The translations under genes and the position numbers were made by a program. From positions 25,773 through 89,772 of the forward strand of contig JAQVVD010000002.1 in assembly GCA_028699155.1 (NCBI GenBank): a stretch of 64,000 bases of DNA, given 5' to 3'. This document shows positions 30,032-60,036 of this stretch, in pieces (the first letter of the stretch is position 1; each line of letters begins with the position of its first letter). This DNA is from Candidatus Peribacteraceae bacterium. GTDB taxonomy: Bacteria; Patescibacteriota; Gracilibacteria; Peribacterales; Peribacteraceae. The notes beneath the pieces are model-generated. The model saw nothing but the letters and a program-made list of their open reading frames with translations. It did not search any database and had not been told where the DNA came from.

Positions 30032-30282
30032 ACGCCTGCGTTGCATGCCGCATAAGAATTATGTATCTGGTTTTCCTGCAGGAATACGCAGGAATACCTG
30101 GTAGCAATATCGCGGATATCTTCTGTGGAACCGTTATCCACAACGATGATTTCCCACCTATCTCTCGGATATGTCTGCGTCTGCAGACCAGTGAGAGTAT
30201 GCACAAGCCCTGCCCGGTTATCGTAGACAGGTATGACAATCGAAACGAAAGGCAGCGTCGTAGAGGGAGCCCTGAGTGGCAT
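30027..30282 (-). pseudogene. truncated family 2 glycosyltransferase (N-terminal ~85 aa only)
   Basis: LPFVSIVIPVYDNRAGL, EIIVVDNGSTED, AACNAGV, after which similarity stops at about 30027. Abuts the ABC fragment tail-to-tail. Confidence 0.65.
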
Positions 30283-30354
30283 GTCCCAATACTAGCGGAG
30301 GAAGGAATGCATGACGTACTAATTCTTACATAAATACGTAAACGCGCATCACCC

Positions 30355-38089: not shown

Positions 38090-38938
38090 TCATTGATGCC
38101 TTTCGCCTTGTACCCAGTACAATCCGCCGATCCCGCTTGCCAGTACGTTCATTGTGAACATCAGAATTGCGAGGGCCACGGCCAGGGGCGGGGGAATCGC
38201 GAATGGGCTGAGCAGTACTATCAGCGCCGCATCCCGGGTGCCCAACCCTGCAGGAGCGATAGGAAGCAGTGACAGGATCCCCGTTATTGTTATGGCAGCC
38301 ACCAAGGGTGGCCAGGGGATGCCTATTCCTATCGAGCGCGCCAGAAGCGCCGCCCAGAGCAGATAGCATGCCCATGCAACAATGGTAAGGGTTAACATGC
38401 TGAGCAGTATTTGCTTTCTGAACGTCGCAGTGAGGAGCGTCAGTGTTTTGAACAAGCGAATCAGCCGTTTTTTTATCAGGAATACGCCTGTAATAGAACC
38501 CATTCCCAGGCACAGGCATAGCAGAGCCCAATGCCATCCAAACAGTATGCCAATACCCACGCATCCCAGCAGTGCGATGACGAGGAAATCGGATAGGCGT
38601 TCAAGCAGCACCAGCGCAATTCCTGACCTTGCAGGCACGCCTATTTTTTTTAAGTACACAGCGCGCCCCAGTTCCCCGATTTTGCCGGGGGTTATCGTTC
38701 CCAGGAAAACACCGGTGCTAAAGAGCTTCCAGGATTCGAAAAGTGTTGGTTCCCTGCCCGTGCTCCGCACCAATATATGCCAGCGTATCGTCTTTAACAG
38801 ATAATTTGCTGCGAATGGAATAAGCGAAAGGAACAGAAGCGAGAGGTTCCCGTTCGATAAGTATCCCAACAGCGATGCCGTGTCTATATTCCAGAGTATC
38901 ACGGCGAAAAGCCCGACTCCGATGAGTTTTATAAGCAT
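38090..38938 (-). CDS. flippase-like membrane protein (lysyl-PG synthase TM-region / UPF0104-like)
   Basis: Trimmed to MLIKLIGVGLFAVILW (ATG 38938). Motif KTIRWHILV...TPGKIGELGRAVYLKK is typical of this family (from memory). Start uncertain; upstream in-frame Mets reach 39139. Confidence 0.55.
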   Translation of the reverse strand: MLIKLIGVGLFAVILWNIDTASLLGYLSNGNLSLLFLSLIPFAANYLLKTIRWHILVRSTGREPTLFESWKLFSTGVFLGTITPGKIGELGRAVYLKKIGVPARSGIALVLLERLSDFLVIALLGCVGIGILFGWHWALLCLCLGMGSITGVFLIKKRLIRLFKTLTLLTATFRKQILLSMLTLTIVAWACYLLWAALLARSIGIGIPWPPLVAAITITGILSLLPIAPAGLGTRDAALIVLLSPFAIPPPLAVALAILMFTMNVLASGIGGLYWVQGERHQ

Positions 38939-38975
38939 GTACAATGCGCGATTCTTTGTTTGTACCACGCGAACA

Positions 38976-40619
38976 ATGCTACACTTGGCGGCAATTGCTG
39001 TCATGCGATTCAAGCGGTTTCCAATTTGGGCCCACCTGGTACTGCTCTCCATTTTTTGCGTGGGCATGATCGGCATCTGGCTGATGCCGCTCTTCATCGC
39101 CGGGTTCCCGTATGAAATTTCCGGCTTCATCCCAACCATCCGGGAATTTGCGAGAACAGGATTGTCGCCGGTTGGGAACGGGAGAATCGTGGTTGCGCTC
39201 TGGTGGCTCCAATCCGTTTTCGGGTGGGAGAATATTCTGGGATGGAACGCAGTCAGCGCCGCATTTTTCGCCGCCGCGCTTTTCCCGTGGTGGTGGAGCG
39301 TTTACAGGTTGTTCGATGCCCGCTCTGCGTGGCTGTCCACCGTGATTCTCAGCCTCATGCCTGTCTTCTGGATCGAGGCGGTACGGTTGAGCGGATACAG
39401 CATGGCGCTCTTCTTCCTGTTCCTGGGTTTTGCACTCTTCATAGAGCTTCGTTCGCGCAATCGTCTCGCTGCAGCCGCGGCATTTGGCATCTGTTTCGGC
39501 GCCGTGCTTGTGAGCCGGGACGCGTTCCAGGCGTTTCTCCCCTGGCTCATAGTCGGCTATGCATGGTATGAACGCAAAAAATTCAAGAGCATGATCTTCG
39601 AGTTGGGAATTGCATGCGTATTGGCGTACACGGTCTTCACGCTTCCGTTGGTTTGCAATGTTGTGAACTCAGAAGGTCCGTTATCTGAGAGGTTCGCAGT
39701 ACTTCTTCCTTCGCTGGATCGCACTATGCCGGCGACAGGACATCTGTATCCGGATGCTTACACGTATGAATTCGACCGCGAATCTTTCGAAGAACTGACC
39801 AGGCAACGGGTGGAAGAGGCGTCTTTCCTGGTTCAGCAGGAAGACGCCAATGTGCGGAAGATGTTCGGCGTGAGCAACTGGGGATTTTTTGAGGCCATTA
39901 CGAACAGTGTCTGGCTCTTTCTCAACGCTATTCCAAGCCTCTTTCTCATGGACACGGTTGGCGGCGTTTTCCTGTGGCTCTTCATTCTTCCGGGCATAGG
40001 GTACGTATTTACTCACAACAGGAAGCTCTTCTCCATGCAGTTGGGACTGTTCCTTTCCATGGAGTTTCTCTTTCGATTCGTTCTCCACTATCACAGGACG
40101 CACCTGATGGATTTCGGTTGGATGCTGGCGCTGTTCGCCGGTCTGGGGATTGTTTCTGTCAGTACGGTGCTCGCCCAGTCATGGAAGAAAGTTTCTGTCA
40201 CAACACTTTCCGCCATTATAGTCGTTCTGCTTGCCGGGCAGCTTTTACAGGCGAATCGAAAACAGTTTGCGCGCATGTATGCGGAGACCGATGATTACCT
40301 GGCTTTTGCCGCCTCTGCGGCTGTGGAAGCTCTGCCGGACGATAGCGTGGTAGCGTACCCCCGCATTCCAAAGCTGCTCTACTTTACCGATAGAGCGCAT
40401 TTCATACTGCACGACGATACGATCGATCGCCTGAGCGGGCAGGGGAGGCTCCGCGATCCATTCAGGCACTACGGAGTCACGCATATCATCGGTTATTCCG
40501 ATGAGCGCGCGGCATTGATACAAGATGCCGTACCCGGCATCCAGGTCGTCTCTTTCGCAGAGGAAAATCCGGTTGTCGTTACGCCTTTTGTACGATTGCT
40601 GCTCCATACCATCCGCTGA
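38976..40619 (+). CDS. GT-C fold membrane glycosyltransferase (ArnT/PMT, GT39/83-like)
   Basis: Trimmed to ATG 38976. About 10 or more TM helices followed by a soluble C-terminal domain. N-terminal region resembles the PMT_2-type arrangement. Confidence 0.55.
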   Translation: MLHLAAIAVMRFKRFPIWAHLVLLSIFCVGMIGIWLMPLFIAGFPYEISGFIPTIREFARTGLSPVGNGRIVVALWWLQSVFGWENILGWNAVSAAFFAAALFPWWWSVYRLFDARSAWLSTVILSLMPVFWIEAVRLSGYSMALFFLFLGFALFIELRSRNRLAAAAAFGICFGAVLVSRDAFQAFLPWLIVGYAWYERKKFKSMIFELGIACVLAYTVFTLPLVCNVVNSEGPLSERFAVLLPSLDRTMPATGHLYPDAYTYEFDRESFEELTRQRVEEASFLVQQEDANVRKMFGVSNWGFFEAITNSVWLFLNAIPSLFLMDTVGGVFLWLFILPGIGYVFTHNRKLFSMQLGLFLSMEFLFRFVLHYHRTHLMDFGWMLALFAGLGIVSVSTVLAQSWKKVSVTTLSAIIVVLLAGQLLQANRKQFARMYAETDDYLAFAASAAVEALPDDSVVAYPRIPKLLYFTDRAHFILHDDTIDRLSGQGRLRDPFRHYGVTHIIGYSDERAALIQDAVPGIQVVSFAEENPVVVTPFVRLLLHTIR

Positions 40620-40685: not shown

Positions 40686-42500
40686 ATGCGCACGAAAGAG
40701 CAATCCATCTACGGTAAGATGCTTTATCTGCTCCGGCAGATTCACATTCATCCGGCATATCTGCTGATTCCCATAAGCCTCTCCATTGTTTCAGCATTAC
40801 TGGAGGGCGTCGGCATCGGTTTGCTGATACCCATTCTCAACGGATTCCTGCAGCAAAATTTCGCGTTTCTTCTGGAAATGCCTGTGATCGGCGGAGTTTT
40901 CCAGCGACTTCCCGAGCCGATTCTGGCCAATGACAAGATGCTGTTTGGAATCCTACTAACGGGATTCATCAGCCTCTACATCGCCAAAAACATCTTCAAG
41001 TATTTCTCCATTGTGTGCATTCGTTATTTTTCTCAACGTACGCTGCACCATCTGCGCAAGACGCTCTTCGCGAAGTACTTAAGTTTCGGGAAACTCTTTT
41101 TCGATCGTACGAATATCGGGCATCACAGTACGCTCCTGCTCGAGTTTTCCAGCATAGCGCTGCGGCCGATCTTCATGCTGGACAAGCTGGTTTCAGCCGT
41201 GTTTTCCATGCTGGCGTATCTGGCGGTCATGTTCTTTATTTCCTGGCGGCTCACTCTTATCGCGCTTCCGTTATTCCTGGTTTTGCACCTGATTGTGCGT
41301 ACGCTCGTCTGCAGGATAAAGGATTTGTCGCGCGCCCTTGCGGAACAGGGGAATGAGCTTGGGAAGAAATCCGTGGAAATTCTGGCCACTATTCCCCTCA
41401 TTAAATCCAGCCGCACAGAGCACAGGGAGCAGGAGCTCTACACGCAGATCAGCGACAGGAAGGCGCGTCTGGATTTTCGCGTGGAAATTCTCACGGCGCT
41501 CATTCTGCCCTTGCAGGAAATAATCACTGTCCTCGTCGCTGCCGGGGTTTTTGTGGGCGCTTTGGCCTGGTTTGGGCGCGCAAGTATCGGCACGGCGCCG
41601 ATGCTCATTGTGTATGCCTACATTATCTTCAATGCTTCCAATAAGTTCGGCGCGATCTCCGGTTTTCGCGGTACTATGGCCGGAGCGTACGGACCGCTCG
41701 ACAAGGTGCTCGCGATTTTTAACGACACATCCAAGTTTTTCGTGAGAGGCGGAAGCAAGGAATTCAAAGGGCTGCAAGATGCCATTACATTCAAAAACCT
41801 CTCCTTCTCGTACACGGAAGGGCAGGACGTGCTCCACAATCTCTCTTTCAGGATTACGAGGGGTGAAATGACGGCAATCGTCGGTCCCACCGGCGCGGGG
41901 AAGAGCACGCTTATTAACCTTCTGATGCGGTATTACGATTGCCCGGAGAAAAGCATCTTCATAGACCAGACTGATATACGCGAATTCTCCCTGGATTCCT
42001 ACATCCAGCGCGTGGCATTGGTAAGCCAGGACACTCTGCTGCTGCACGATACGTTACGCAGCAATATTGCGTACGGCCTCGCACACGTTTCTGAGGAGGA
42101 TATGCGGCGCGCCGTAGAACGTGCGCGTCTTTCCGAATTCGTAGCCGGTTTGCCGGAAGGCCTGCAAACACTCATAGGCGATCGAGGCGTCCGCTTGAGC
42201 GGAGGAGAGAAGCAGCGCGTTTCCATTGCGCGCGCTCTGCTCAAGGAAGCGGAAATTTTGATTTTAGACGAGGCGACCAGTTCCCTTGACAGCCATACGG
42301 AACGATTGATTCAAGAGGCGATTGATGAGGCGACAAAAGACCGTACCTCCATTGTTATTGCGCATCGATTGAGCACCATTCAGCACGCAGACACGATTCT
42401 TGTCATACAGAACGGCAGACTCGTGGAGGAGGGGGGAGTGCAGGAGTTGCTGGATCGCAAAGGGATATTTTTTGAACTGTGGGAAGAGCAGAAGTTCTAA
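40686..42500 (+). CDS. ABC exporter, fused TMD-NBD (MsbA-like)
   Basis: Six-helix TMD, then GPTGAGKSTL, LSGGEKQRVSIARAL, ILILDEATSSLD. Confidence 0.85.
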   Translation: MRTKEQSIYGKMLYLLRQIHIHPAYLLIPISLSIVSALLEGVGIGLLIPILNGFLQQNFAFLLEMPVIGGVFQRLPEPILANDKMLFGILLTGFISLYIAKNIFKYFSIVCIRYFSQRTLHHLRKTLFAKYLSFGKLFFDRTNIGHHSTLLLEFSSIALRPIFMLDKLVSAVFSMLAYLAVMFFISWRLTLIALPLFLVLHLIVRTLVCRIKDLSRALAEQGNELGKKSVEILATIPLIKSSRTEHREQELYTQISDRKARLDFRVEILTALILPLQEIITVLVAAGVFVGALAWFGRASIGTAPMLIVYAYIIFNASNKFGAISGFRGTMAGAYGPLDKVLAIFNDTSKFFVRGGSKEFKGLQDAITFKNLSFSYTEGQDVLHNLSFRITRGEMTAIVGPTGAGKSTLINLLMRYYDCPEKSIFIDQTDIREFSLDSYIQRVALVSQDTLLLHDTLRSNIAYGLAHVSEEDMRRAVERARLSEFVAGLPEGLQTLIGDRGVRLSGGEKQRVSIARALLKEAEILILDEATSSLDSHTERLIQEAIDEATKDRTSIVIAHRLSTIQHADTILVIQNGRLVEEGGVQELLDRKGIFFELWEEQKF

Positions 42501-43321
42501 TGCCTGGCCCGCAGCCGATACACGCCCACTGCTCCACCGTGTTTTTCCGTTCCCTGAAACGGAACCACGCATGTTTGCAGCCAGGCAAGGAATTCATCAA
42601 TTTGCGCCTGAGAGGTTGCCATCTTCGCGTCACGCACAACGTTGGGGAGTCTCCTTTTGAAATCCTCCACCATTTTCGTTCCCTGTCCCCATTCGTGATC
42701 AACGGTGAACCAGTCGAGTTCCATCCCGAGATCATCCGCCCACGCATCAAAGTTCTTTGGCGTGAGATAATGTATATCTGCCAATGTTATGGGGGCATGG
42801 AACATATGCCACAATGTTTGCAGAATGTACCCGCGCGGATTCAACCAATTAGGGCACGTCAGTACCAATTCCCCCTCAGGTTTCATCATCCCCTTCATCC
42901 GCTTGAGCGCATCGAGCGGGTCATCCATATGCTCCAGTGTTCCCAATGAAATAATAATATCGAATTCCCCCTCCATTTCCCGTAGCTGTCTGGATTGGAA
43001 TAAAAGGTTTTTCGCTTCATGTTTCTTCTGTGCTTCCGCGATCGCTTCTTTCGAGTAATCGATCCCCACTACGTTTTTTGCGCCCATTTCTGCGATATAG
43101 GAGCACATATCCCCTGTTCCACATCCCACATCCAATACATCTTTTCCCTTCCAATCCAGCAGTTCCAGCACCGCTCTGAATTCTTCCGGCATGTCCTGTG
43201 TCTGCAGCCGAAACTGAGTGTAGTGCGATCGTTCGCCTTTCCTGTACACCGAATCATAGAATTCCCTGAGTTGCACATTTTTTTTCATAGCTCCACTATC
43301 ACTGGTTCCTCCCAGATTCAC
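42497..43321 (-). CDS. class I SAM-dependent methyltransferase
   Basis: VLDVGCGTGDMCSYIAEMG motif I. 4-nt convergent overlap with the ABC gene. Confidence 0.75.
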   Translation of the reverse strand: MNLGGTSDSGAMKKNVQLREFYDSVYRKGERSHYTQFRLQTQDMPEEFRAVLELLDWKGKDVLDVGCGTGDMCSYIAEMGAKNVVGIDYSKEAIAEAQKKHEAKNLLFQSRQLREMEGEFDIIISLGTLEHMDDPLDALKRMKGMMKPEGELVLTCPNWLNPRGYILQTLWHMFHAPITLADIHYLTPKNFDAWADDLGMELDWFTVDHEWGQGTKMVEDFKRRLPNVVRDAKMATSQAQIDEFLAWLQTCVVPFQGTEKHGGAVGVYRLRARH

Positions 43322-43350: not shown

Positions 43351-44451
43351 ATGCACGCGAAAAAGCCCCGAAAAAGCATGCGTTTCTGTACAGAGTTGCG
43401 ATACTATTGCCTCATAGTAAAGATTATTGCCATCATTCCGGCAAGATCCGGTTCGAAAGCCATTCCTCATAAGAATATACAGCTTTTTGCGGGCAAGCCT
43501 CTCATGGCGCATTCCATCGAGCAGGCGCTTCGGAGCAAGCTGATCGAACGCGTGATTGTGAGTACCGATAGCCAGGAGTACGCAGCAATTGCGCGTGAAG
43601 CAGGCGCAGAGGTTCCATTCCTTCGGCCTGCCGAACTCTCCACAGATCACTCTACCGATTTGGAGGCCTTCACCCATGCGCTTACGTGGTTGCAGGAGCA
43701 CGAGGGGGCGGCGCCTGACATCTGCGTCCACCTGCGCCCGACTCATCCCAATCGGCGCGTAGCAGACATCGATGCCGCTATCCAAGTTCTTCTGGATCAT
43801 CCCGAATTCGATTCTGTTCGCAGCGTTGCTCCTGCGCGCCAGACGCCATTTAAAATGTGGATGATGCAGGATGATCATGCCATTATCCCTGCTATTCAAT
43901 CCGGGCTGAAAGACGCATACAACCTGCCGCGACAAATGCTCCCCAAGGCCTACGTGCAGAATGCCTGCATCGATGTCGTCCGTTCTGCGGTTATCCTCCA
44001 AAAAGGATCCATGACAGGCGACAGGATCTACGGGTATGCGATGGAGGAGGATTTTGACATTGATACGCCCGACGAGTTGAAGCGCGCGGAGCAGGCGTTG
44101 CTTGCCGCCAGGATTCAGCAGCCGATTCAGCCTGGCGAGACGCGCACATTCTGTTTCGATATTGATGGCGTGATTGCCGGTCTGGTCTCCGGCAATGATT
44201 ACGCGCTCTCTCAGCCGCAGCAGGAAATGGTTGCGCTCATTCAGCATCTGCATAGCGAAGGGCATCGCATCATTCTGCATACTGCACGCGGCTCCATGAC
44301 AGGGAAGGATTGGCGCGAAGTGACCGAAAGACAGCTGAAAGAGTGGGGAGTCCCCTATGAAGAACTGCACTTTGGCAAACCTGCGGCAGACGTGTACGTT
44401 GATGATCGCGCATGGAATCCGGTTGCTTCTGTTTCCCCGTTGTCACAATGA
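43351..44451 (+). CDS. CMP-ulosonic/nonulosonic acid synthetase (acylneuraminate cytidylyltransferase family) fused to a small HAD phosphatase domain
   Basis: IAIIPARSGSKAIPHKNI N-terminal domain. C-terminal ~105 aa carries HAD motifs FDIDGVI, HTARG, GKP...VYVDDRA (from about 44140). Start may be the second Met (43378). Confidence 0.75.
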   Translation: MHAKKPRKSMRFCTELRYYCLIVKIIAIIPARSGSKAIPHKNIQLFAGKPLMAHSIEQALRSKLIERVIVSTDSQEYAAIAREAGAEVPFLRPAELSTDHSTDLEAFTHALTWLQEHEGAAPDICVHLRPTHPNRRVADIDAAIQVLLDHPEFDSVRSVAPARQTPFKMWMMQDDHAIIPAIQSGLKDAYNLPRQMLPKAYVQNACIDVVRSAVILQKGSMTGDRIYGYAMEEDFDIDTPDELKRAEQALLAARIQQPIQPGETRTFCFDIDGVIAGLVSGNDYALSQPQQEMVALIQHLHSEGHRIILHTARGSMTGKDWREVTERQLKEWGVPYEELHFGKPAADVYVDDRAWNPVASVSPLSQ

Positions 44452-45941
44452 GCGAGTACTTCCACAAATTGTTCATCTTCGAGATGGCCAACAACCACCA
44501 GGGCAGCGTGGAACACGGCAAACGCATCATTGATGCCATGGCGGATATCGCGAAGAAGCATTCCATTCGTGCGGGTATCAAGTTCCAGTTCCGGGATCTT
44601 GATACATTCATCCATCCTCGTTTTCGCAACGATACGAATGCCAAGCACATCAGCCGGTTCCTCGGCACCAGGCTCTCCAGGGAGCAATTCCAGGAAATGA
44701 TTGCCTATGCACGCAGCAGAGGATTGCTGGCCATTTCCACCCCGTTTGATGAGGCGTCTGTTGACCAGTGCACCGAGCAGGATATAGACATCATCAAAGT
44801 TGCCAGCTGCAGCGCCATGGATTGGCCGCTTTTGGATGCGGTTTCACGCTCCGGCAAACCGGTCATCATTTCCACGGCCGGCGTACAGTTTTCTGACATC
44901 GATAAAATCGTCAGCTTCTTCTCCCATCGCGGAGTGACCTTTGCAGTTCTGCACTGCGTTGGCATGTATCCTGCGCCCGATACAGAGCTGAATCTGGATA
45001 TCATCCCGCGCATGATCAAGCGGTACCCTGCTATCCCCATTGGGTACTCCGGGCATGAAGCGCCGGATAATACGCATGTCGCCATTGCGGCAGTGAGCAA
45101 AGGCGCAATGCTCCTCGAGCGCCATGTAGGCGTTCCTACAGATGGCGCGACGCTCAATGCGTACTCCATGAATCCGCAGCAGACGGATGCATGGGTGCAG
45201 GCTGCAAAACTTGCGTGGGAGATGGCAGGCTCGAACGAGAAAATTGTTCCTGGCGGAGAGGCGGCTTCCCTCCGATCACTGATGCGCGGCACGTATGCGC
45301 GCACAGCCATCAAAGCCGGACAGGTTCTCCGTCCGGAGGACGTATACTTCGCAATGCCCGTACAAGAGGGACAGCTTACGAGCGGGGAATTCGGCGGGTA
45401 TCGAGCCGTCTTTGCCGCATCTCGCGACTATGCGCCGGATGAGCCGATCTACGAAGTACAGAAGGAAGATCCGGTCCTCCTGGCACGGGAAGTCATCCAT
45501 CAAGCGCAAGGAATGCTCAATGAAGCAGGTATTCATGTGGGAGATGATTCTACGATCGAACTCTCGCACCACTATGGCATGGAACGTTTCCGTGAAGTCG
45601 GCGCCGTCATTGTGAACATCATCAACCGCGAATACTGCAAGAAGCTCATCATCATGCTGCCCGGACAGCGCCATCCGCTCCATCAGCATGAGCGCAAGGA
45701 AGAGACATTTGAGCTCCTCTCCGGCGATCTGGAAGTGCAGTTGGACGGTGCTATCACGCGCATGATTCCGGGAGATCGTCTGCTTGTAAAACGTAATTCT
45801 TCCCATAGCTTCTTCACGAAAGAGGGTGCGATATTCGAGGAAATATCCACAACCCACTACAAGGGAGATTCGTTCTACGAAGACAAGGAAATCAGTGCGC
45901 TTGACCCCATGCAGCGCAAGACAGTTGTTGCCAGCTTCTAG
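44448..45941 (+). CDS. NeuB-family PEP-condensing synthase fused to SAF and C-terminal cupin domain
   Basis: Trimmed to ATG 44448 (ATGA overlap with the upstream stop). EMANNHQGSVEHG, IKFQ, IIKVASC, GYSGHE for the NeuB TIM barrel. SAF-like segment around residue 280-335. Cupin GQRHPLHQHERKEETFELLSG around 45600-45857. Confidence 0.75.
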   Translation: MSEYFHKLFIFEMANNHQGSVEHGKRIIDAMADIAKKHSIRAGIKFQFRDLDTFIHPRFRNDTNAKHISRFLGTRLSREQFQEMIAYARSRGLLAISTPFDEASVDQCTEQDIDIIKVASCSAMDWPLLDAVSRSGKPVIISTAGVQFSDIDKIVSFFSHRGVTFAVLHCVGMYPAPDTELNLDIIPRMIKRYPAIPIGYSGHEAPDNTHVAIAAVSKGAMLLERHVGVPTDGATLNAYSMNPQQTDAWVQAAKLAWEMAGSNEKIVPGGEAASLRSLMRGTYARTAIKAGQVLRPEDVYFAMPVQEGQLTSGEFGGYRAVFAASRDYAPDEPIYEVQKEDPVLLAREVIHQAQGMLNEAGIHVGDDSTIELSHHYGMERFREVGAVIVNIINREYCKKLIIMLPGQRHPLHQHERKEETFELLSGDLEVQLDGAITRMIPGDRLLVKRNSSHSFFTKEGAIFEEISTTHYKGDSFYEDKEISALDPMQRKTVVASF

Positions 45942-45992: not shown

Positions 45993-47507
45993 GTGCCGTT
46001 TCCTATGGATCAATCTGCATCCAATCCTCCGATACGAGCTATTGCCGGGAGGTTCTCCTTCCGTTTTTCCAAGCAGGCGCTTTCACGCGTGTTCAAGCAC
46101 CGTCCTTTTGAATACTGCGCCCTGATTTCCAAGGGCAAGGAGCCGGATTTTTTTGCTGAAATTCCCTTGGAGAACCAGGAGTGGTTTGATTCCGGCGAGG
46201 TGCGCGGCTGCAAATATGCCGGGGTTGATTGGAATGCGCTTGCGCCTTTGGATGCCACGCTCATTGAGCGCATGCGCGAGTGCGAATGTATGTTCATGGA
46301 TGTCATCGCCCGACTGGAGTGGAAGCGCAGCATACCGTATGCAACCCGCAAGCGCTGGTATCTGCAGCACCTCCGTTTCTGGAATGATTACCTTTCCCGG
46401 CATCGCATCAATCTGTATCTCTCCGCATGGATGCCGCACGAGCTCCCGGATCTCATCATTTACTATTTGTGCAAGGCAAGGAGCATTCCTGTCCTATACT
46501 TTGACGCCTCTGCTGTGCGAGACACATCTTTTGCCGAACACGATATCAAGCAGTCATCCATCCAGATTCGCCAACGCTACGAGGAGCTTGCAGCGGAGTA
46601 TGCCGATGTAACTGACCCAAAAGACATACCCCTGAGTGACCGGTTTGAACAGCGGTACCAGGCGCTCACTGCCCCAATGGGAGAAGAGCCTCCGCTTGAG
46701 AACGTTTGGAATACCACCTATTTCGACCATGTTCGAAAGCTGCTGATTGAGAAGCCGCTGTTTTTCTGCAAGTGCGCCCTGCAGTATGTAACTCCCAGGG
46801 GCATTGCCAGGGCGCGCAGCACATGGCGACGGAAGAGAATTATTGAGGAACGCAATGCATTCTACGAGGCGCATGCCGTAACGCCCGATTTATCCAAACC
46901 GTTTGTGTACATGACGCTGCATTACCAGCCGGAGGCATCTACTATTCCGATGGCCGGCGCATATCGGGAGCAATTGCTTATTGCGCAGACGCTGAATGCC
47001 TGCCTGCCTGATGGCGTGATCATTTACGTAAAAGAGCACCCCCGCAATAGTGGCTGGCTGCAGCGGAGCATTGCGTACTATGAGGATTTTCTGGCGCTCG
47101 AAAAAGTGCGTTTTGTGCCCCGCTCATTCGATACATTCACACTCCGCGAACATTGCATGGCGGTTGCCACGGCAACCGGCACTATCGGGTTCGAGGCGCT
47201 TTTTCGCGGCAAGCCCACGCTCATGTTCGGCCATAGGTTCTATCAGTACGCGCCGGGCGTCTATCAAATCCATTCCATGGATGACTGCAGGCGCGCCGTA
47301 CACGATATTTTCGTTGAGAAGAAAGCACCCACGCTCAAAGAGGCGCGCTTGTTCATGAAAGCAATGGATGACACATGCATACATGGCACGCTGAATATCT
47401 GGCATCTCAAAGTCTCACACTTATCAGATGAGGAGCATATGCAAGCCAATGCGGAGGCGATGCTACACGAGCTTTCCCTGCTTGCTCCGGCGATAGCAGC
47501 CGTGTAA
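45993..47507 (+). CDS. KpsS/KpsC-like (Capsule_synth-type) putative CMP-sugar ulosonic-acid transferase, paralog 1
   Basis: LHYQPEAST...YVKEHPRN...VATATGTIGFEALFRGKP. Family assignment is from memory of the LQxxxD / HP motif pattern. Start may be ATG 46005. Confidence 0.5.
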   Translation: MPFPMDQSASNPPIRAIAGRFSFRFSKQALSRVFKHRPFEYCALISKGKEPDFFAEIPLENQEWFDSGEVRGCKYAGVDWNALAPLDATLIERMRECECMFMDVIARLEWKRSIPYATRKRWYLQHLRFWNDYLSRHRINLYLSAWMPHELPDLIIYYLCKARSIPVLYFDASAVRDTSFAEHDIKQSSIQIRQRYEELAAEYADVTDPKDIPLSDRFEQRYQALTAPMGEEPPLENVWNTTYFDHVRKLLIEKPLFFCKCALQYVTPRGIARARSTWRRKRIIEERNAFYEAHAVTPDLSKPFVYMTLHYQPEASTIPMAGAYREQLLIAQTLNACLPDGVIIYVKEHPRNSGWLQRSIAYYEDFLALEKVRFVPRSFDTFTLREHCMAVATATGTIGFEALFRGKPTLMFGHRFYQYAPGVYQIHSMDDCRRAVHDIFVEKKAPTLKEARLFMKAMDDTCIHGTLNIWHLKVSHLSDEEHMQANAEAMLHELSLLAPAIAAV

Positions 47508-48828: not shown

Positions 48829-50265
48829 TCACCGCCAGTACGGCTGTATTTTTTCCCGCATGGTTTTCCCCATTATCACCGCTTTTTCCTCCTGCGTGTG
48901 TTCCTCGTGGGAGCCTGTCGGACCTCCCACATACGGCTGCGTACAATTTTCTATTGCCCGTAGGAAAAGCCGCATGTCTCTCAATGTCGGGGTTTCCCCG
49001 TTTTCCACAATACTCTGTACGGCTTTCTTGCAATCCTCGTTTGTGCTGACCCTATGCACCCCCGGTGCATACTGAAAGAACCTGTGCCCAAACATTATTA
49101 CAGGTTTGCCTTTAAACAGCGCTTCCAGCCCGGCTGTTCCTGTTGCTGTTGCTACGGCTACCGCATGCGCTGTCAGCACAAACGTACTAAAGTCCCTTCG
49201 TATGAGTTTGACCGATGGAATATTTGCCAGTGTTTCATAGAATGCTTTGCTGCGGCATATTTCCCCCTGTGCAGGGTGTTCTTTGATGTAAATCTTTACG
49301 TCCGGCGGCAGATGTGCCGCCAGCATTTGCGCCATGAGTTCCTGATTGTTGAATACGCCTGCCATTGGACATGTTGTGGCTTCTGGTTGCAGGTGCAGTG
49401 GTAGGTAAATGTATCTTTCCTTCAGGTCTGGCTCCTCTGCCATCTGATCGTACAACTTGGAAGTATTATGCTGGCTGACTTTTCTTGTCCAGAATTCCAG
49501 TGAAAGCAGTGAGGAGAGTAAATATTTCGGTTTCTTAAAGAGCAGTTCCAGTGCGGTTTTGCCCCATTTAAGGAAGAAACTTCGGCGTGCCAGATGTTTC
49601 TCTCTGCGGAACATGTACCACGGGTCCTCGTTTTTGGTCGTATACTTCCGGAAGATTTCCTCAAATTTGTCGGAGAGCTTCACTTCCTGTTTCGGATCGT
49701 TGTTTTCCGCCTGCACAACAGCCAGCTCTCTCCGAAGTGCCTCCCCCGCTTCTCTGTAATCGCTCTCCAGAAGGAAGGCATCCATGATCACAAATCTCTC
49801 TATGTAGAAGAACGGGATCTGCTTTATTTTGCAGAGGGAGTACAGCACGTAATCGTAGCACTGGTGCGGCACGGTATAGCTCAGTACCAAATCAATTTTT
49901 TTGGTTTCGAGCAGATGATTAAAATAGAGGAAATGCCGGAGGTACTGCCGCTTTCTCTCATGGTAAGAAATGTCCCGGTACTTTGTGTACCGGTCTACCA
50001 TAGCTATGAATGTCGCCTCACAACCGCGCATTTTTTCCATCAGGTCTTCATCCAGCGGCGTGACCGCATTCCAATCCACATTTGAATGTTCCTCCCTCAT
50101 CAATTCTTTGGCAGGCAGCCAAATGTGCTCTTTTGCATCCAGTGTTGGCCATTGCTGCTTGTCATTCAGTATGGAAATGCAGGTATCCATCTTCAGCCCT
50201 TTTAGAGCTGCTTCCACAATCTCTTTGCACAGCACGCCGTCGAACGCTTTTAAAATGATATTCAC
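48829..50265 (-). CDS. KpsS/KpsC-like putative ulosonic-acid transferase, paralog 2
   Basis: About half the residues are identical by eye to 45993-47507 over the C-terminal domain (LHLQPEATT...YIKEHPAQ...VATATGTAGLEALFKGKP). Confidence 0.5.
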   Translation of the reverse strand: MNIILKAFDGVLCKEIVEAALKGLKMDTCISILNDKQQWPTLDAKEHIWLPAKELMREEHSNVDWNAVTPLDEDLMEKMRGCEATFIAMVDRYTKYRDISYHERKRQYLRHFLYFNHLLETKKIDLVLSYTVPHQCYDYVLYSLCKIKQIPFFYIERFVIMDAFLLESDYREAGEALRRELAVVQAENNDPKQEVKLSDKFEEIFRKYTTKNEDPWYMFRREKHLARRSFFLKWGKTALELLFKKPKYLLSSLLSLEFWTRKVSQHNTSKLYDQMAEEPDLKERYIYLPLHLQPEATTCPMAGVFNNQELMAQMLAAHLPPDVKIYIKEHPAQGEICRSKAFYETLANIPSVKLIRRDFSTFVLTAHAVAVATATGTAGLEALFKGKPVIMFGHRFFQYAPGVHRVSTNEDCKKAVQSIVENGETPTLRDMRLFLRAIENCTQPYVGGPTGSHEEHTQEEKAVIMGKTMREKIQPYWR

Positions 50266-50303: not shown

Positions 50304-51389
50304 TTAGCTCACCAATTCCCAAGTAAGCGGAGTTCCTCTCTCGATTCGTGCAGCCGCTTTTTTCCCAAGCACATTTTCAAACTCCTTTGGCGGCAGGCCG
50401 TTTGCGGGGCGAATGGATCGGACATTCTCTTCTGAGAATATCTCCCCCTTCTGCATGTTCCTTACTACGAATAAAGACCGGCGGAATTGCAGGCTCTTCT
50501 TATCCTGGCCGCTCGCGCCGTACGATACGTTTCCCAGTATTGTCTTATTAAGCTTATCTCCGGGGGTAGGGGATTGTTCCTGCGCCCGGATTGCATCCAC
50601 CATTTCTTTAAATTCATTCGGCTCTAATGAAAACGCGTTATCCGGTCCCGGTTTGCTCCGATCGAGTGTGAAGTGTTTTTCAATAACACATGCACCTAGT
50701 GCAACTGCGGTGAGCGGCACCTCTTGTTCCAATGAGTGATCGGAAAGCCCTACGGGGAGCTTGAACCGTTCCATCATATCCGGAATGGTTGCAAGGTTCA
50801 TTTCCTCTGGTTTTGCGGGATACGCACTGGTGCATTTGAGTAGAATAATTTGATCATTCTCCGAAGAATGTACCGCATCTACAGCATCTTGAATTTCTTG
50901 AATACTTCCCATTCCGGTCGAGATTATTACAGGCTTGCCTTTTGCAGCAATGTAGCGAATTAGTGGTATATCAACCAGTTCGAAAGATGCGACCTTGAAT
51001 GCTGGGACTCCCATTTCGTCTAGAAAATCCACCGCTTTAGTATCGTGTGGCGTGGAAAACAGATCCATACCTAATTCATTTGCAAGATTCATTAATTTTG
51101 GTTGCCAACCCCAAGGCGCATATAACTCTTCGTAGAGCTCATACAGATTCCGGCCCTCCCATGCCGTGCCTTTTTCAATCATGAATTCCCTTTTGTTGCA
51201 TTGCAACGTGATCGAATCGGGAGTGAATGTAAGCAGTTTGACTGCATCTGCACCCGCAGCCTTCATTTCGTGAAGCATTCTGACAGCACAGTCAAAGTCT
51301 TGAAGATGATTCCCTGACATTTCGGCGATTACGTACGTTGGGTGGCCAGTTCCAACAATTTTATCGCCAATAGATACTGTCGAGCTCAT
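50304..51389 (-). CDS. nonulosonic acid synthase (PseI/LegI/NeuB family) with SAF domain
   Basis: VIAEMSGNHLQD, AVKL, FKVASFELVD, GLSDHS, C-terminal SAF. ATGA overlap with the upstream gene (51386-51389). Confidence 0.85.
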   Translation of the reverse strand: MSSTVSIGDKIVGTGHPTYVIAEMSGNHLQDFDCAVRMLHEMKAAGADAVKLLTFTPDSITLQCNKREFMIEKGTAWEGRNLYELYEELYAPWGWQPKLMNLANELGMDLFSTPHDTKAVDFLDEMGVPAFKVASFELVDIPLIRYIAAKGKPVIISTGMGSIQEIQDAVDAVHSSENDQIILLKCTSAYPAKPEEMNLATIPDMMERFKLPVGLSDHSLEQEVPLTAVALGACVIEKHFTLDRSKPGPDNAFSLEPNEFKEMVDAIRAQEQSPTPGDKLNKTILGNVSYGASGQDKKSLQFRRSLFVVRNMQKGEIFSEENVRSIRPANGLPPKEFENVLGKKAAARIERGTPLTWELVS

Positions 51390-52075
51390 CGGATTTCACG
51401 AATTAATTCGAAGGCTTCTGCCGCTCCAAATCCCGACACACTGCCCCAATAAATTGCATGTGCCCTCAAGACTTCCTCCGAACGAGGGTGCGGGAATGCG
51501 CGCATTTCTTGTTCGTAGACTTTCATTGCAGATATTTTGCTTTCCAACGTATTGCTAATGTCCTCGAATGTTGTTGGGTGGAATCTTGGGGAAAAAGACT
51601 GGAATGCCCATTCGGTTGACGATGGTACCTCGTATGCGTACACCTGTTTTACTGTTCCCCCTTCCATTGGACGCGTTGCGGTGAGTACTGCCCTGAATGT
51701 GCGCTCATGGTCGATGTTTAGATCTCCCCCATGTTGGGTGAATACCATAGAAGGTTTTATTTGCTTAACATGGTCCTCTACCATTTTTATGATTTCCAAA
51801 AGCGGCACGGTATCGAACCTATTATCAGGAAGATGCCCGATTTTCACGCTTTGTGCCCCAAGAATTTTCCCAGCCTTTGCAGCTTGGGTATGCAATTCTT
51901 GTATTTGCTTTTTGTCTGTTTCCGCGGGGCTGGAATATCTGGACGTGATACCTTCTCCCAGTATAATAATATGAACAGAGTTCCCTTCTTTTGCGAGCTT
52001 TGCAATTGTTCCTCCACAGCCTAGCACCTCATCGTCTGGGTGTGCGGCAACAACTAGAATATCCATTTTTCTCAA
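51386..52075 (-). CDS. PIG-L/LmbE-family N-deacetylase
   Basis: ILVVAAHPDDEVLGCGGTIAK signature. Confidence 0.8.
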   Translation of the reverse strand: MRKMDILVVAAHPDDEVLGCGGTIAKLAKEGNSVHIIILGEGITSRYSSPAETDKKQIQELHTQAAKAGKILGAQSVKIGHLPDNRFDTVPLLEIIKMVEDHVKQIKPSMVFTQHGGDLNIDHERTFRAVLTATRPMEGGTVKQVYAYEVPSSTEWAFQSFSPRFHPTTFEDISNTLESKISAMKVYEQEMRAFPHPRSEEVLRAHAIYWGSVSGFGAAEAFELIREIR

Positions 52076-52208
52076 GAAGTAGAGATAATTATAAACATAT
52101 CAATTCTATAATCCGCGCGAAAATTTACTAATTTTTTTCACAGTATTTCAAAAATTATACAATGAAATTGTATTCGTTCAATTCCTTCTGCCATATATCA
52201 TACAGCCA

Positions 52209-53144
52209 GTGCTTAATGTTTTAATTACTTGCGCAGGCGGAGCGGGGTCACAGTATTTGGCCGAGTCTGTACGCAATACGTACAATATCTTTCTTGCAGA
52301 TGGGAATGACGAAATAGTTGCTGCTCATTCGGATCTGCCGTTTCAAAAAATTCCGCTTGGATCAGACCCTGCCTACAAAGCATCAATTACCACACTCGTA
52401 AAGAAACTAAAAATAGATTTTATTGTCCCCGGCGCGGATGAAGAATTGATACCGCTCGCTATCTTGCATGAAGAGAGTGTCGTCAAGTGCGTGATGCCTA
52501 TCAAGCATTTTGTTGAGGCATGTTTGCACAAAAAGAAGCTTATGCATTTACTCCACCAGCACGGTCTTTCAACACTACTCCCCTTTGCTACGGAAGACGA
52601 GGTGGTATTTCCCGCAGTTGCAAAACCAATTTTCGGCAGAGGGTCGTATCAAGCCCATCGGATTGATACCAAACATCAATTAGAAGGGTATTTGAAACTT
52701 TACAGCAAAACATTCCCAGAAATATTAGTGCAGCCATGCATAGATGGTCAGGAGTATACGGTTTCGGTGATTCTAAATAACATGAACAAGCTCATTGGCA
52801 TTGTCCCAAAGCGCATCATTCGCAAAAAGGGCATTACGCAAGTCGCAGTAACAGAAAACAATGCTTGTATTGAGGAAGTGTGCAAGAAAATTGTCGAAAC
52901 AATGAATCCGTGCGGTCCGTTCAACGTGCAACTAATGTTGCTAAAAAATACGTGTTACATATTTGAAATTAATCCACGACTCTCCACTACTGCGGTACTT
53001 ACGGACAAAGCCTTTGGGAATGAAATAGATCTATTTATTCGGCACTATGATCACGACAGAATTTTTCCATTACCTGCAATGAGAGAGAGGGTGTACCTTT
53101 ATCGAGGCACTCAAAATTTCTTTGTTGATGCAGCAAATATTTAG
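52209..53144 (+). CDS. ATP-grasp enzyme
   Basis: Size and layout are typical of ATP-grasp ligases (FIVPGADEE, VAKPIFGRGS, EYTVSV, FEINPRLS). GTG start. Confidence 0.65.
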   Translation: MLNVLITCAGGAGSQYLAESVRNTYNIFLADGNDEIVAAHSDLPFQKIPLGSDPAYKASITTLVKKLKIDFIVPGADEELIPLAILHEESVVKCVMPIKHFVEACLHKKKLMHLLHQHGLSTLLPFATEDEVVFPAVAKPIFGRGSYQAHRIDTKHQLEGYLKLYSKTFPEILVQPCIDGQEYTVSVILNNMNKLIGIVPKRIIRKKGITQVAVTENNACIEEVCKKIVETMNPCGPFNVQLMLLKNTCYIFEINPRLSTTAVLTDKAFGNEIDLFIRHYDHDRIFPLPAMRERVYLYRGTQNFFVDAANI

Positions 53145-53160
53145 CATCTTGGCGCGTTTA

Positions 53161-54524: not shown

Positions 54525-54590
54525 AGTTTTATCCTAAGTTACGAGCCACTAGATCACAACCTTTTACCGCAGAATCCACTTCTAATTCCC

Positions 54591-56839: not shown

Positions 56840-56862
56840 GGGAAAATGCTATCACAATTGCG

Positions 56863-59027: not shown

Positions 59028-59038
59028 TTTCCAAATAG

Positions 59039-60004: not shown

Positions 60005-60036
60005 ATGATGCGAATCGTAGCACAAAACAGGAGAAA

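Follow-up and report, generated by a model that had tools for sequence, protein, structure and literature searches.

A two-gene, four-domain cassette predicted to make a CMP-activated ulosonic acid in a Peribacteraceae glycan locus

Two adjoining genes of a Candidatus Peribacteraceae bacterium, lying in a 64,000-nucleotide stretch of DNA that was analysed as a whole (henceforth called the window), raise the question of which activated sugar could be made by two polypeptides that join a cytidylyltransferase to a HAD phosphatase (gene A) and a NeuB-type synthase to a cupin (gene B). The initial annotation had read them as an ATGA-coupled pair packing four activities. The coupling is borne out by the sequence itself, where an ATGA at 44448-44451 holds both the start codon of gene B (44448-44450) and, one base further on, the stop codon of gene A (44449-44451). 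The domains of all four activities were recovered by domain searches and fold matches (Table 1). The frame of gene B is also open from 44412 (ORF list: 44412/44448..45941, + strand). An NCBI protein that is 100% identical to gene A (P0121, annotated as a Candidatus Peribacteraceae acylneuraminate cytidylyltransferase family protein) starts at Met10 (43378) and has 357 aa.

Table 1. Coordinates of the gene pair, its domains and neighbouring features in the window.
Feature	Coordinates	Strand	Basis
Gene A: cytidylyltransferase-HAD phosphatase	43351..44451	+	ORF, 366 aa
CMP-ulosonate (NeuA/PseF-like) cytidylyltransferase domain, aa ~24-255 of gene A	43420..44115	+	PF02348, TIGR03584
Cap-less HAD phosphatase domain (TIGR01689 / AfhF type), aa 262-366 of gene A	44134..44448	+	motifs, PDB profile search, fold
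Gene B: NeuB-SAF-cupin fusion	44448..45941	+	ORF, 497 aa from ATG at 44448
NeuB-type PEP-condensing TIM barrel + SAF/antifreeze-like domain, aa 1-340 of gene B	44448..45467	+	PF03102
D-lyxose/D-mannose isomerase-type cupin, aa 341-497 of gene B	45468..45938	+	PDB profile search, AF2, Foldseek
MsbA-type ABC exporter, same glycan locus	40686..42500	+	ABC_membrane + ABC_tran matches
SAM-dependent methyltransferase, divergent	42497..43321	-	Methyltransf_23/11/25 matches
~500-aa protein, weak Capsule_synth (KpsS/KpsC-like) similarity, directly downstream	45993..47507	+	PF05159 E 2e-10
Paralogue of Capsule_synth-like protein	48829-50265	-	similarity to 45993..47507 product
Second NeuB of window = PseI	50304-51389		PseI equivalog 453 bits, over cutoff

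All motifs quoted at the outset were found, namely DIDGV (residues 270-274), TAR (311-313), GKP (342-344) and DD (351-352) in gene A and GQRHPLHQHERKEETF (406-421) in gene B, and the residues named with them are invariant in alignments of 33 (gene A) and 37 (gene B) sequences. Full-length homologues of each fusion number in the thousands, at 55-66% identity. A frameshift or assembly artefact was excluded for both fusions, because they are conserved across phyla and adjoin each other; neither arose by chance or artefact.

The N-terminal part of gene A was matched by Pfam CTP_transf_3 (PF02348) over aa 26-163 (E 3e-24; 86 bits vs a gathering score of 22.6) and by the NCBIfam model PseF (TIGR03584) over aa 26-247 (E 1e-40; 140 bits, under the cutoff of 206). 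In a profile search of the PDB, the best matches were NeuA enzymes (9ftb at E 1e-28, as well as 6ifd and 1eyr), and the CMP-Kdn synthetase of P. parvum (9t4z) was also matched (E 2e-12). The IPARSGSK..KN motif, i.e., the N-terminal PARxGSK nucleotide-binding motif, is invariant in the 33 sequences of the gene A family. Together, the PF02348 and HAD matches agree with the proposed joining of an acylneuraminate cytidylyltransferase domain to a HAD domain.

The HAD region was hit by the NCBIfam model TIGR01689 (EcbF/BcbF) over aa 267-358 at E 2e-6, with 27.7 bits under a curated cutoff of 162, and by HAD_PNKP at E 6e-4. Its kinship to the TIGR01689 / AfhF type was therefore assigned from the PDB profile matches (9iqw at E 1e-19 and 30% identity; 1xpj at E 2.5e-11) and from the fold (AF2 model, pLDDT 87; top Foldseek match 9iqw), and not from the TIGR01689 cutoff. 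The loss of the nucleophilic Asp had been named as a finding that would speak against a phosphatase; Asp270 is invariant and all four catalytic motifs are intact, with D270 and D272 (motif I), T311 (motif II), K343 (motif III) and D351/D352 (motif IV) invariant in the 33 sequences. The initial comparison with small capsule-biosynthesis phosphatases holds, as the nearest solved relative, AfhF (9iqw), is a sugar-phosphate phosphatase of that family. The HAD falls in another subfamily than the KdsC/YrbI-type Kdn 9-phosphate phosphatase of the Bacteroides route: the Foldseek matches 3e81 and 1k1e were at E about 0.04 only (for the KDN9P phosphatase 3e81, E 0.04 and TM 0.48).

In gene B, the NeuB domain (PF03102) was matched over aa 43-265 (E 8e-44; 150 bits vs a cutoff of 22.1). 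Pfam SAF was weak (17 bits, cutoff 21) and is called in homologues. The closest structure to the NeuB-SAF part is 3g8r (E 4e-125 with the family profile), whose alignment runs through residue 335 and which supports the presence of the SAF domain. N. meningitidis NeuB was matched by the gene B family profile at E 1e-32, and H203 and H226, which align to its metal-binding His, are invariant in the 37 sequences. Since the cutoffs of both equivalog models were missed, namely those for N-acetylneuraminate synthase (NeuB_NnaB, TIGR03569; 147 bits vs 400) and for pseudaminic acid synthase (PseI, TIGR03586; 135 bits vs 340), gene B belongs to a NeuB subfamily distinct from the Neu5Ac and Pse synthases. 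At the position of Arg314 of N. meningitidis NeuB, which we take to be an N-acetyl contact, the gene B family has a near-invariant Met (FAMP motif).

The cupin is the most conserved region of the gene B protein. It was matched by Cupin_2 (aa 401-456, E 4e-8) and in part by Pfam Lyx_isomer (PF07385; aa 376-419, 18.6 bits, just under the cutoff of 20.8), and many gene B homologues have a precomputed PF07385 match. The top two hits of the PDB profile search were 2y0o (E 2.8e-14) and 7nzo (E 1.3e-13), i.e., the D-lyxose/D-mannose isomerases YdaE of B. subtilis and TsLI of Thermofilum. The AF2 model of the domain (pLDDT 92.8) gave 2y0o, 7nzo, 7nzp and 7nzq as its top six Foldseek matches (TM 0.77-0.80, rmsd 1.6-2.8 A), with a match that spans the entire domain and its N-terminal helix; 7nzq and 7nzp are complexes with D-mannose and D-fructose. 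Residues K62, H75, H77, K86, E88, H143 and E156 of the Thermofilum enzyme correspond to K399, H412, H414, K417, E419, H453 and E465 of gene B, all seven of which are invariant or nearly so, and thus the four metal ligands (H-x-H...E...H) and the catalytic Lys and Glu, with the sugar contacts Lys (YCxK), Lys (KxETF) and Glu (E-x-S), are kept. The counterpart of Thermofilum D163 is ambiguous in the alignment and is possibly the invariant D474, and H412, the first metal-binding His, is Gln in a minority of homologues (P0100, P0117, P0391). Profile search, fold and conserved ligands thus bear out the likeness to D-lyxose/D-mannose isomerases first proposed for this domain. A 3,4-ketoisomerase of the FdtA type, considered as a possible better match, was rejected, as the best PDB and Foldseek matches were isomerases of the 2y0o/7nzo types. 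The gene B cupin is a D-lyxose/D-mannose isomerase-type domain, and isomerase activity is predicted for it from these residues and the modelled fold. In characterised D-lyxose isomerases, mutation of the metal ligands or of the catalytic Lys and Glu abolishes activity; these enzymes work on free sugars and not on phosphosugars, D-lyxose is their preferred substrate with the Thermofilum enzyme turning over mannose at <2% of that rate, and Arg175 confines the latter to pentoses (PMC8378251). Arg175 is without an aligned counterpart in gene B. Compared with the known isomerases, the cassette cupin is about 24% identical, is fused to NeuB, may take a phosphorylated substrate and alone has an additional invariant SHH (373-375) and a D486/R490/K491/T492 tail; the extra invariant basic residues among these (H374, H375, R490, K491) could, speculatively, bind phosphate.

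How often the two fusions occur and co-occur was surveyed across genomes, and both proved widespread, conserved and adjoining. More than 6000 homologues of gene B were found, the best 120 of which are almost all about 498 aa long with PF03102 and PF07883. The cupin family was matched in at least 575 species genomes, from which scan 80 species loci were kept, and the pair of NeuB-cupin and cytidylyltransferase is shared by hundreds of species of bacteria and by some archaea. NeuB and cupin are fused in all 80 kept loci (80/80), and a cytidylyltransferase adjoins them in 74 of 83, with a HAD on 51 of those 74; reciprocally, two chosen cytidylyltransferase-HAD homologues each have a NeuB-cupin gene alongside. 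The TIGR01689-type HAD is absent from the other 23 of the 74 (about 30%), for most of which no other phosphatase was found nearby. A phosphatase has been recruited to the cassette repeatedly: in one locus (L084), an unrelated HAD-IA is fused to NeuB-cupin (P0246) beside a HAD-less cytidylyltransferase, and stand-alone HAD-IA genes adjoin NeuB-cupin in three others (L047, L055, L063). As a phosphatase can be fused to either partner, the fusion pattern leaves the order of steps unfixed. The pair stands by itself in Xanthocytophaga agilis, where further genes for sugar tailoring are absent; a common metabolite is therefore the expected input. A more distant clade of the NeuB-cupin fusion (46% identical), in Chromobacterium and Azoarcus, is part of a CDP-hexose-type cluster, and no cytidylyltransferase-HAD gene was found up to 10 kb away; a tailored deoxysugar may therefore be the substrate of some family members. 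A literature search found no biochemistry for any member of either fusion family.

From these data, genes A and B are proposed to form a self-contained cassette of four activities leading from a ketose phosphate of central metabolism to a CMP-activated 3-deoxy-2-ulosonic acid, most likely CMP-Kdn, a proposal to which we give an even chance; substrate, phosphorylation state of the intermediates, step order and product are those suggested by comparative genomics and precedent. In brief, the cupin of gene B, as a metal-dependent ketol-isomerase, would convert fructose 6-phosphate to mannose 6-phosphate (ketose to manno-configured aldose), and the NeuB barrel of the same polypeptide would condense this aldose with PEP to Kdn 9-phosphate. 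The HAD of gene A would then strip the terminal phosphate, which would make the route irreversible, and the cytidylyltransferase would form CMP-Kdn for use by locus-specific transferases, i.e., the Capsule_synth-like protein in the window, Maf in Clostridia, where flagellin is the target, and in other loci the capsule enzymes of Wzx/Wzy systems. Routes that run via a phosphorylated ulosonate (Kdo: KdsA/KdsC; Kdn: BT1714/BT1713; animals: NANS/NANP) dephosphorylate after condensation.

The step logic of the proposed route is that of the Kdo pathway and of the Bacteroides and animal 9-phosphate sialic acid routes. The Kdn 9-phosphate route of Bacteroides thetaiotaomicron (BT1714 synthase, BT1713 phosphatase, CMP-Kdn synthetase) and the animal NANS/NANP/CMAS route likewise pass from a NeuB-family synthase to a HAD phosphatase and a CMP-sugar synthetase, and neither they nor the cassette need a ManNAc-forming epimerase; vertebrate CMAS also has a C-terminal HAD-like domain. 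The cassette differs from them in its cap-less TIGR01689/AfhF-type instead of KdsC/YrbI-type HAD, which keeps every catalytic residue on the cytidylyltransferase, in a dedicated isomerase fused to the synthase and in a distinct NeuB subfamily. With the Kdo pathway (KdsD-KdsA-KdsC-KdsB) it has in common the four-step logic of isomerase, PEP condensation, HAD and CMP activation, whereas a cupin stands for the SIS domain, NeuB for the KdsA barrel, a TIGR01689 HAD for KdsC and a NeuA/PseF-like enzyme for KdsB, all four being non-orthologous or distantly related; NeuB-type stereochemistry on arabinose 5-phosphate would, we infer, not yield Kdo. The cassette is best read as Kdo-pathway logic, probably built from non-orthologous isomerase and phosphatase parts. 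AfhF of phage HY126 and the 'capsule biosynthesis phosphatase' EcbF-BcbF of TIGR01689 belong to the same small cap-less HAD family as the cassette HAD; AfhF is Mg-dependent and takes the terminal primary phosphate off a sugar (D-arabinofuranose 1,5-bisphosphate, in a UDP-arabinose route), and is a stand-alone protein, whereas the cassette HAD is fused. The structure 3g8r, a 'probable spore coat polysaccharide biosynthesis protein E' of Chromobacterium violaceum, stems from a construct without cupin, whereas the genomic protein (P0391, 495 aa) is a NeuB-SAF-cupin fusion that is 46% identical to gene B and lies in the CDP-hexose-type cluster mentioned above, with no cytidylyltransferase-HAD adjoining. 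A precedent for a two-gene module with a NeuB-isomerase fusion is Serratia marcescens KL1/KL2, where a neuA-neuB pair begins the capsule locus and is required for a Kdn capsule (Neu5Ac at about 1:20), and where NeuB (746 aa) has an extra sugar-phosphate isomerase domain, COG1082, of a fold that differs from the cassette cupin (PMC9000132).

Other readings were weighed against the route through Kdn 9-phosphate. It is unlikely that the same enzymes make CMP-Kdn from unphosphorylated sugars, with the HAD first dephosphorylating a hexose phosphate to free fructose or mannose, or having a side role, the cupin turning fructose into mannose and NeuB condensing free mannose with PEP. Free sugars are the rule in all characterised D-lyxose isomerases and in the ligand complexes 7nzp and 7nzq, bacterial NeuB, PseI and LegI are generally known to take unphosphorylated aldoses (ManNAc for NeuB), and both the loci without a recognisable phosphatase and the fusion of a HAD to NeuB-cupin in P0246 fit such a scheme. 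However, the loss of fructose 6-phosphate or mannose 6-phosphate to a phosphatase would be a drain on central metabolism, hexoses are scarce unphosphorylated inside cells, the HAD is mostly fused to the last enzyme, as fits consecutive steps three and four, and the four extra basic residues of the cupin could, if the speculation holds, hold a phosphate; to our knowledge, no ulosonate pathway begins by dephosphorylating a hexose phosphate. Less probable again is a deaminated ulosonic acid of different chain length or configuration made by the same logic, with 8 carbons (from xylulose 5-phosphate via D-lyxose 5-phosphate) or 10 (from sedoheptulose 7-phosphate via D-glycero-D-manno-heptose 7-phosphate). 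The preference of the isomerase family for D-lyxose over mannose, the action of AfhF, the best solved HAD relative, on a pentose 5-phosphate and the separation of the NeuB subfamily from characterised synthases point that way; Kdn is, however, widely detected, the Serratia precedent yields Kdn and the pentose-restricting Arg175 lacks an aligned counterpart, and we know of no 8- or 10-carbon ulosonic acid of such origin in bacteria.

That the pair in the window draws on neighbouring genes for its input, a tailored sugar of the 6-deoxy or amino kind, with the cupin as a C2 epimerase acting via the ketose and, e.g., a 5-hydroxy analogue of legionaminic or pseudaminic acid as product, is improbable. 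In its favour, the genes of a full, separate Pse-type pathway, additional tailoring enzymes included, are found 4-16 kb downstream, and the neighbours of NeuB-cupin in Chromobacterium and Azoarcus are genes for an NDP-hexose dehydratase, DegT, a TPP-enzyme and a methyltransferase. Against it, the Pse cluster brings a PseI synthase (over the equivalog cutoff) and a cytidylyltransferase of its own, a sugar released from a nucleotide would hardly call for a phosphatase, and no NDP-sugar dehydratase or aminotransferase was found near the pair in Xanthocytophaga, a capsule locus and many flagellar islands. In line with the initial annotation, no ManNAc-forming epimerase is found near the pair in the window; the neighbouring sugar genes there belong to the separate pseudaminic acid pathway. 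We consider it very improbable that the cupin is a regulatory, sugar-binding or ring-opening module instead of an isomerase, with the NeuB aldose coming from elsewhere, e.g., as mannose 6-phosphate from ManA: many cupins are generally known to be non-enzymatic, the Lyx_isomer score is just under its threshold and Gln replaces the first metal-binding His in a subset of homologues, but its conservation, its four metal ligands with catalytic Lys and Glu and its fold match over the whole domain, N-terminal helix included, speak for an isomerase.

The cassette is associated with glycosylation systems that use ulosonic acids, its settings being flagellin-glycosylation islands with Maf, Wzx/Wzy capsule loci and the Peregrinibacteria glycan locus of the window; 41 loci have Maf (MptE-like) glycosyltransferases and 29 have flagellin genes, and one pair-bearing locus is a Wza/Wzc/Wzx capsule locus. 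A bolder and rather unlikely reading is that NeuB-cupin and cytidylyltransferase-HAD form a route, spread horizontally and so far unrecognised, to a deaminated, CMP-activated ulosonic acid for flagellins or surfaces, with a cupin acting on a phosphosugar or with an undescribed product (8- or 10-carbon, or of new configuration). If true, a phosphosugar-using cupin would be the first in its D-lyxose-isomerase-type family, and many Lachnospiraceae of gut and rumen would carry the sugar on their flagellins, as would candidate-phylum bacteria and DPANN archaea on their surfaces. Within the Peregrinibacteria, the MsbA-type exporter is conserved in three further loci (L002, L004, L005), in each of which a Capsule_synth-like gene directly follows NeuB-cupin; the product of this gene in the window is a candidate transferase for the activated sugar. 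The divergent methyltransferase is a possible tailoring enzyme with a moderate association to the pair: it has the same position in one of these loci, from Peribacteraceae (L002), and in three others (L025, L027, L037) weaker homologues of it are flanked by the cytidylyltransferase and NeuB-cupin genes.

Two open reading frames overlap where bases 44448-44451 read ATGA, so that the stop of gene A, a cytidylyltransferase-HAD fusion, overlaps the start of gene B, a NeuB-SAF-cupin fusion. Two genes carrying four domains had been proposed in the initial annotation; this was confirmed, and all motifs quoted there were found in place. The product of gene A is identical to P0121, a public protein of Candidatus Peribacteraceae (Peregrinibacteriota, candidate phylum) that starts at Met10. 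Thousands of full-length homologues (55-66% identity) were retrieved for each fusion, many top homologues of the two sharing contigs, and a frameshift or assembly artefact was ruled out because both fusions are widely conserved. Elsewhere the window carries ordinary chromosomal genes, e.g., MurB, MurG, FtsW, GltX, and SufB.

Positions of the gene pair, its domain matches, and genes in and around the neighbouring pseudaminic-acid-type cluster
Feature	Position	Strand	Description
Gene A	43351-44451	+	ORF, 366 aa
Gene A, CTP_transf_3	aa 26-163		E 3e-24
Gene A, PseF-like	aa 26-247		E 1e-40, under its cutoff
Gene A, HAD	aa 267-358		weak; TIGR01689 E 2e-6, HAD_PNKP E 6e-4
Gene B	44448-45941	+	ORF, 497 aa
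Gene B, NeuB	aa 43-265		E 8e-44
Gene B, SAF			weak match
Gene B, Cupin_2	aa 401-456		E 4e-8
Gene B, Lyx_isomer			sub-threshold match
PseI	50304-51389	-	over equivalog cutoff
ATP-grasp gene	52209-53144	+
Metallophosphoesterase	53161-53850
SDR	53847-54524
PseG-PseH	54591-56225		GT28_C-GNAT fusion
Cytidylyltransferase of Pse pathway	61000-61809

The cytidylyltransferase domain of gene A is NeuA/PseF-like according to family and PDB profile matches. In the HAD domain, all four motifs (D270 and D272, T311, K343, D351/D352) were invariant among 33 homologues, and a PDB profile search returned 9iqw (E 1e-19), 1xpj (E 2.5e-11), and then the phosphatase domain of T4 polynucleotide kinase as the best solved relatives. 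The domain model (pLDDT 87) was matched by Foldseek to the same 9iqw, which is AfhF of phage HY126, a D-arabinose 1,5-bisphosphate phosphatase. AfhF is Mg-dependent and takes off the terminal 5-phosphate en route to UDP-arabinose (PMC13326640). The intact motifs, including the nucleophile D270, and the likeness to 1xpj and to AfhF, the nearest relative, mark the domain as a predicted member of the 'capsule biosynthesis phosphatase' family, a small cap-less enzyme acting on sugar phosphates, in agreement with the resemblance noted in the initial annotation. The KdsC/YrbI-type phosphatases that serve Kdo-8-P and Kdn-9-P are, in contrast, a different HAD type, and this assignment was ruled out, with 3e81 and 1k1e found only at E about 0.04 (Foldseek).

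For the cupin domain of gene B, a profile of 27 cupin domains was run against the PDB, and the best two matches were the D-lyxose isomerases of Bacillus subtilis (2y0o, E 2.8e-14) and Thermofilum (7nzo, E 1.3e-13), with alignments spanning the N-terminal helix through the C-terminal tail. An AlphaFold model of the cupin domain only (pLDDT 92.8) had the same D-lyxose isomerases, including complexes with D-mannose and D-fructose, as its six top Foldseek matches (TM 0.77-0.80, rmsd about 1.7 A), followed by lower-coverage matches to E. coli Z5688, L-ribose isomerases, archaeal phosphomannose isomerases, and KdgF. Assignment to KdgF, phosphomannose isomerase, or a generic cupin was rejected, as KdgF and the archaeal phosphomannose isomerases scored far below the D-lyxose isomerases and were matched over the barrel only (TM about 0.5). 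No FdtA-type 3,4-ketoisomerase was present among the listed PDB profile and Foldseek matches of the cupin; with the top matches of both searches all being D-lyxose isomerases, the earlier suggestion of a D-lyxose/D-mannose isomerase type rather than an FdtA type was upheld. Sugar and metal contacts of the Thermofilum isomerase are K62, H75, H77, K86, E88, H143, E156, and D163, and mutation of the equivalents of K86, E156, and D163 abolishes activity (PMC8378251). By alignment, the counterparts in gene B are K399, H412, H414, K417, E419, H453, and E465 (that of D163 being ambiguous), and these seven were invariant or nearly so among 37 homologues. S373-H374-H375 and the C-terminal D486...R490-K491-T492 were invariant in the NeuB-cupin family and have no counterpart in the isomerases.

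The NeuB part of gene B scored far under the curated Neu5Ac synthase and pseudaminic acid synthase cutoffs, and the family profile matched 3g8r at E 4e-125 versus E 1e-32 for Neisseria meningitidis NeuB; on these scores it is predicted to be a separate subfamily. The metal-binding histidines of NeuB are retained, and a near-invariant Met aligns with Arg314 of Neisseria NeuB, which touches the N-acetyl group and is Ala in the 4ipi mutant sequence. Met in place of this Arg is in keeping with a substrate that lacks an acetamido group. The entry 3g8r ('SpsE', 350 aa) comes from a truncated construct; in full, the product of the Chromobacterium violaceum gene (locus L086, 10001-11488) is a 495-aa NeuB-SAF-cupin protein (P0391), and the sole solved structure of the NeuB-cupin subfamily therefore lacks the isomerase domain.

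A cupin-profile scan of one genome per species gave at least 575 confirmed matches, and 83 loci were analysed (80 kept from the scan and 3 from direct look-ups). NeuB and cupin were fused in 80/80 scan loci. Of the 83 loci, 74 had a cytidylyltransferase, and several of the nine that lacked one ended at a contig edge; a TIGR01689-type HAD was found in 51 loci, and a cytidylyltransferase without it in 23. NeuB-cupin adjoined both cytidylyltransferase-HAD proteins checked from the homologue list (2/2), so the linkage is reciprocal. Carriers were Lachnospiraceae and other Clostridia, Paenibacillus, Cytophagales, Verrucomicrobia, Planctomycetes, Gammaproteobacteria, Myxococcota, Chloroflexota, Actinomycetota, candidate-phylum bacteria, and DPANN archaea. 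No fusion was detected by tblastn in 72,556 plasmids, which gave only ordinary PseI/NeuB-like genes. Cupin matches at E <= 1e-30 amounted to 215 representatives (50% clustering), some of them stand-alone proteins of about 170 aa. One stand-alone cupin (P0287, 169 aa; L085, 4466-6510) adjoins a 467-aa protein with a HAD-IA phosphatase as its C-terminal half and without any family match over its N-terminal 237 aa; NeuB genes were not found near this cupin in L085.

With domain identities, active-site conservation, and linkage established, a route from fructose 6-phosphate to CMP-Kdn is favoured with middling confidence, its substrate, phosphorylation state, step order, and product all being proposals. 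Fructose 6-phosphate would be converted to mannose 6-phosphate by the cupin as ketose-phosphate isomerase, condensation with PEP would give Kdn 9-phosphate, the phosphatase would release Kdn, and CMP activation would yield CMP-Kdn. The four domains match the four-step scheme of the Kdo pathway (ketose-phosphate isomerase, PEP condensation, phosphatase, CMP activation), and likewise that of 9-phosphate sialic acid routes. The Kdn route is favoured because the isomerase family converts aldoses of manno and lyxo configuration into their ketoses and back, because acetamido-sugar genes are unneeded and the pair can occur alone (in Xanthocytophaga agilis, sugar-tailoring genes are absent around it), and because there is a precedent in the Kdn capsule of Serratia marcescens. 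That capsule requires a neuA-neuB pair, in which NeuB carries another isomerase domain (PMC9000132); compared by description, the two systems share a NeuB with an isomerase domain but differ in the type of that domain.

Beside a HAD-less cytidylyltransferase, an unrelated HAD sometimes stands in. P0246 (L084, 1803-3974) is a 723-aa NeuB-cupin-HAD(IA) triple fusion that adjoins a 244-aa HAD-less cytidylyltransferase, the pair being flanked by two GFO/IDH/MocA-type oxidoreductases, and stand-alone HAD-IA genes lie beside NeuB-cupin in 3 loci. That two types of phosphatase were recruited independently speaks for a phosphorylated intermediate; this argument is, however, weakened by about 30% of loci, in which no phosphatase was seen.

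The same route might run on free sugars, which is regarded as unlikely. A different chain length, starting from xylulose 5-phosphate or sedoheptulose 7-phosphate, is considered quite unlikely, and from the isomerase family's substrate pattern and NeuB stereochemistry we infer that Kdo is an unlikely product. A non-catalytic cupin is considered highly improbable.

A tailored deoxysugar as substrate is held to be improbable; the distant clade bears on it. NeuB-cupin of C. violaceum and Azoarcus sp. KH32C, which shares 46% identity with that of the window, lies in a different gene setting, a CDP-hexose-like cluster (L086/L087, about 6.8-18 kb each) with sugar-1-phosphate nucleotidyltransferase, 4,6-dehydratase, a 437-469 aa DegT protein, TPP enzyme, a C-methyltransferase-like (Methyltransf_14) protein, and radical SAM enzymes, plus a NUDIX hydrolase in C. 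violaceum and a flagellin gene near the cluster in Azoarcus. No cytidylyltransferase-HAD was found within 10 kb of NeuB-cupin in these two. In P0391 of C. violaceum, and likewise in P0100 and P0117, Gln replaces the first metal-binding His. Either two pathways are merely adjacent there, as in the window, or this clade uses a different sugar. A link to the higher-carbon CMP-ulosonic acid of Magnetospirillum was dropped because that compound has two N-acetyl groups.

Mass spectrometry detects Kdn and related sialic-acid-like sugars in many microbes, environmental as well as host-associated, and Kdn and Neu5Ac synthases are currently indistinguishable by genome annotation (PMC10483923). If the pair makes CMP-Kdn, it would be a simple genomic marker of Kdn-type glycans in at least 575 species, including many gut and rumen Lachnospiraceae with the pair in flagellin glycosylation islands. 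It would also provide a two-gene tool leading from central metabolites to a CMP-activated sialic acid analogue, and a clear case of one four-step logic rebuilt with unrelated isomerase and phosphatase folds. Compact routes to a CMP-activated sialic-acid-like sugar are already known, and the fusions to a cupin isomerase and to an AfhF-type phosphatase are new and very widespread variants; literature searches returned neither a description of either fusion nor an assigned product, and public annotation is generic (e.g., 'N-acetylneuraminate synthase family protein').

Just downstream of the pair, a complete separate pseudaminic-acid-type pathway (50304-61809, minus strand) also includes a PIG-L deacetylase, a GFO/IDH/MocA oxidoreductase, a PseC-like aminotransferase, a PseB-like dehydratase, and a methyltransferase. 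The ATP-grasp/metallophosphoesterase/SDR stretch has a lower G+C, about 0.40-0.47 across roughly 50 to 56 kb. This pathway has its own PseI and cytidylyltransferase. The cassette would thus supply the locus with activated ulosonic acid independently of it, as a second source. Gene A is unlikely to be the PseF of this neighbour, because of that cytidylyltransferase and because A accompanies B in loci without Pse genes.

In the window, as in its relatives among the Peregrinibacteria, the genes around the pair encode an ABC exporter, a methyltransferase, a GT4, and two Capsule_synth-like proteins. The two Capsule_synth-like proteins (45993-47507, plus strand; 48829-50265, minus strand) are paralogues, each about 500 aa long, whose similarity to Capsule_synth (KpsS/KpsC-like) is only weak and which lack an NCBIfam match; among the loci examined, homologues were found in Peregrinibacteria loci only. 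Both are candidates for transferring the locus's two activated ulosonic acids. Two further ORFs have no Pfam match (38880-40619, plus strand, 579 aa; 29443-30333, plus strand, 296 aa), the former of which may not be genuine because an opposite-strand LPG_synthase_TM gene (38090-39139) overlaps it.

Elsewhere, one pair is set in a Wza/Wzc/Wzx capsule locus. In Clostridia, the pair was found among Maf-type flagellin glycosyltransferases in 41 loci, and flagellin genes were present in 29 loci, accompanied by FliS, CDP-ribitol-type genes, and glycerol/ribitol-phosphate transferases. These Clostridia islands (L053, L037, L089, and about 40 others) combine Maf (MptE-like), the cassette, and large GT1-like proteins with an IspD-like cytidylyltransferase, an SDR (CDP-ribitol-synthase-like), and one to three Glyphos_transf genes, which suggests flagellin glycans bearing an ulosonic acid plus alditol phosphate.
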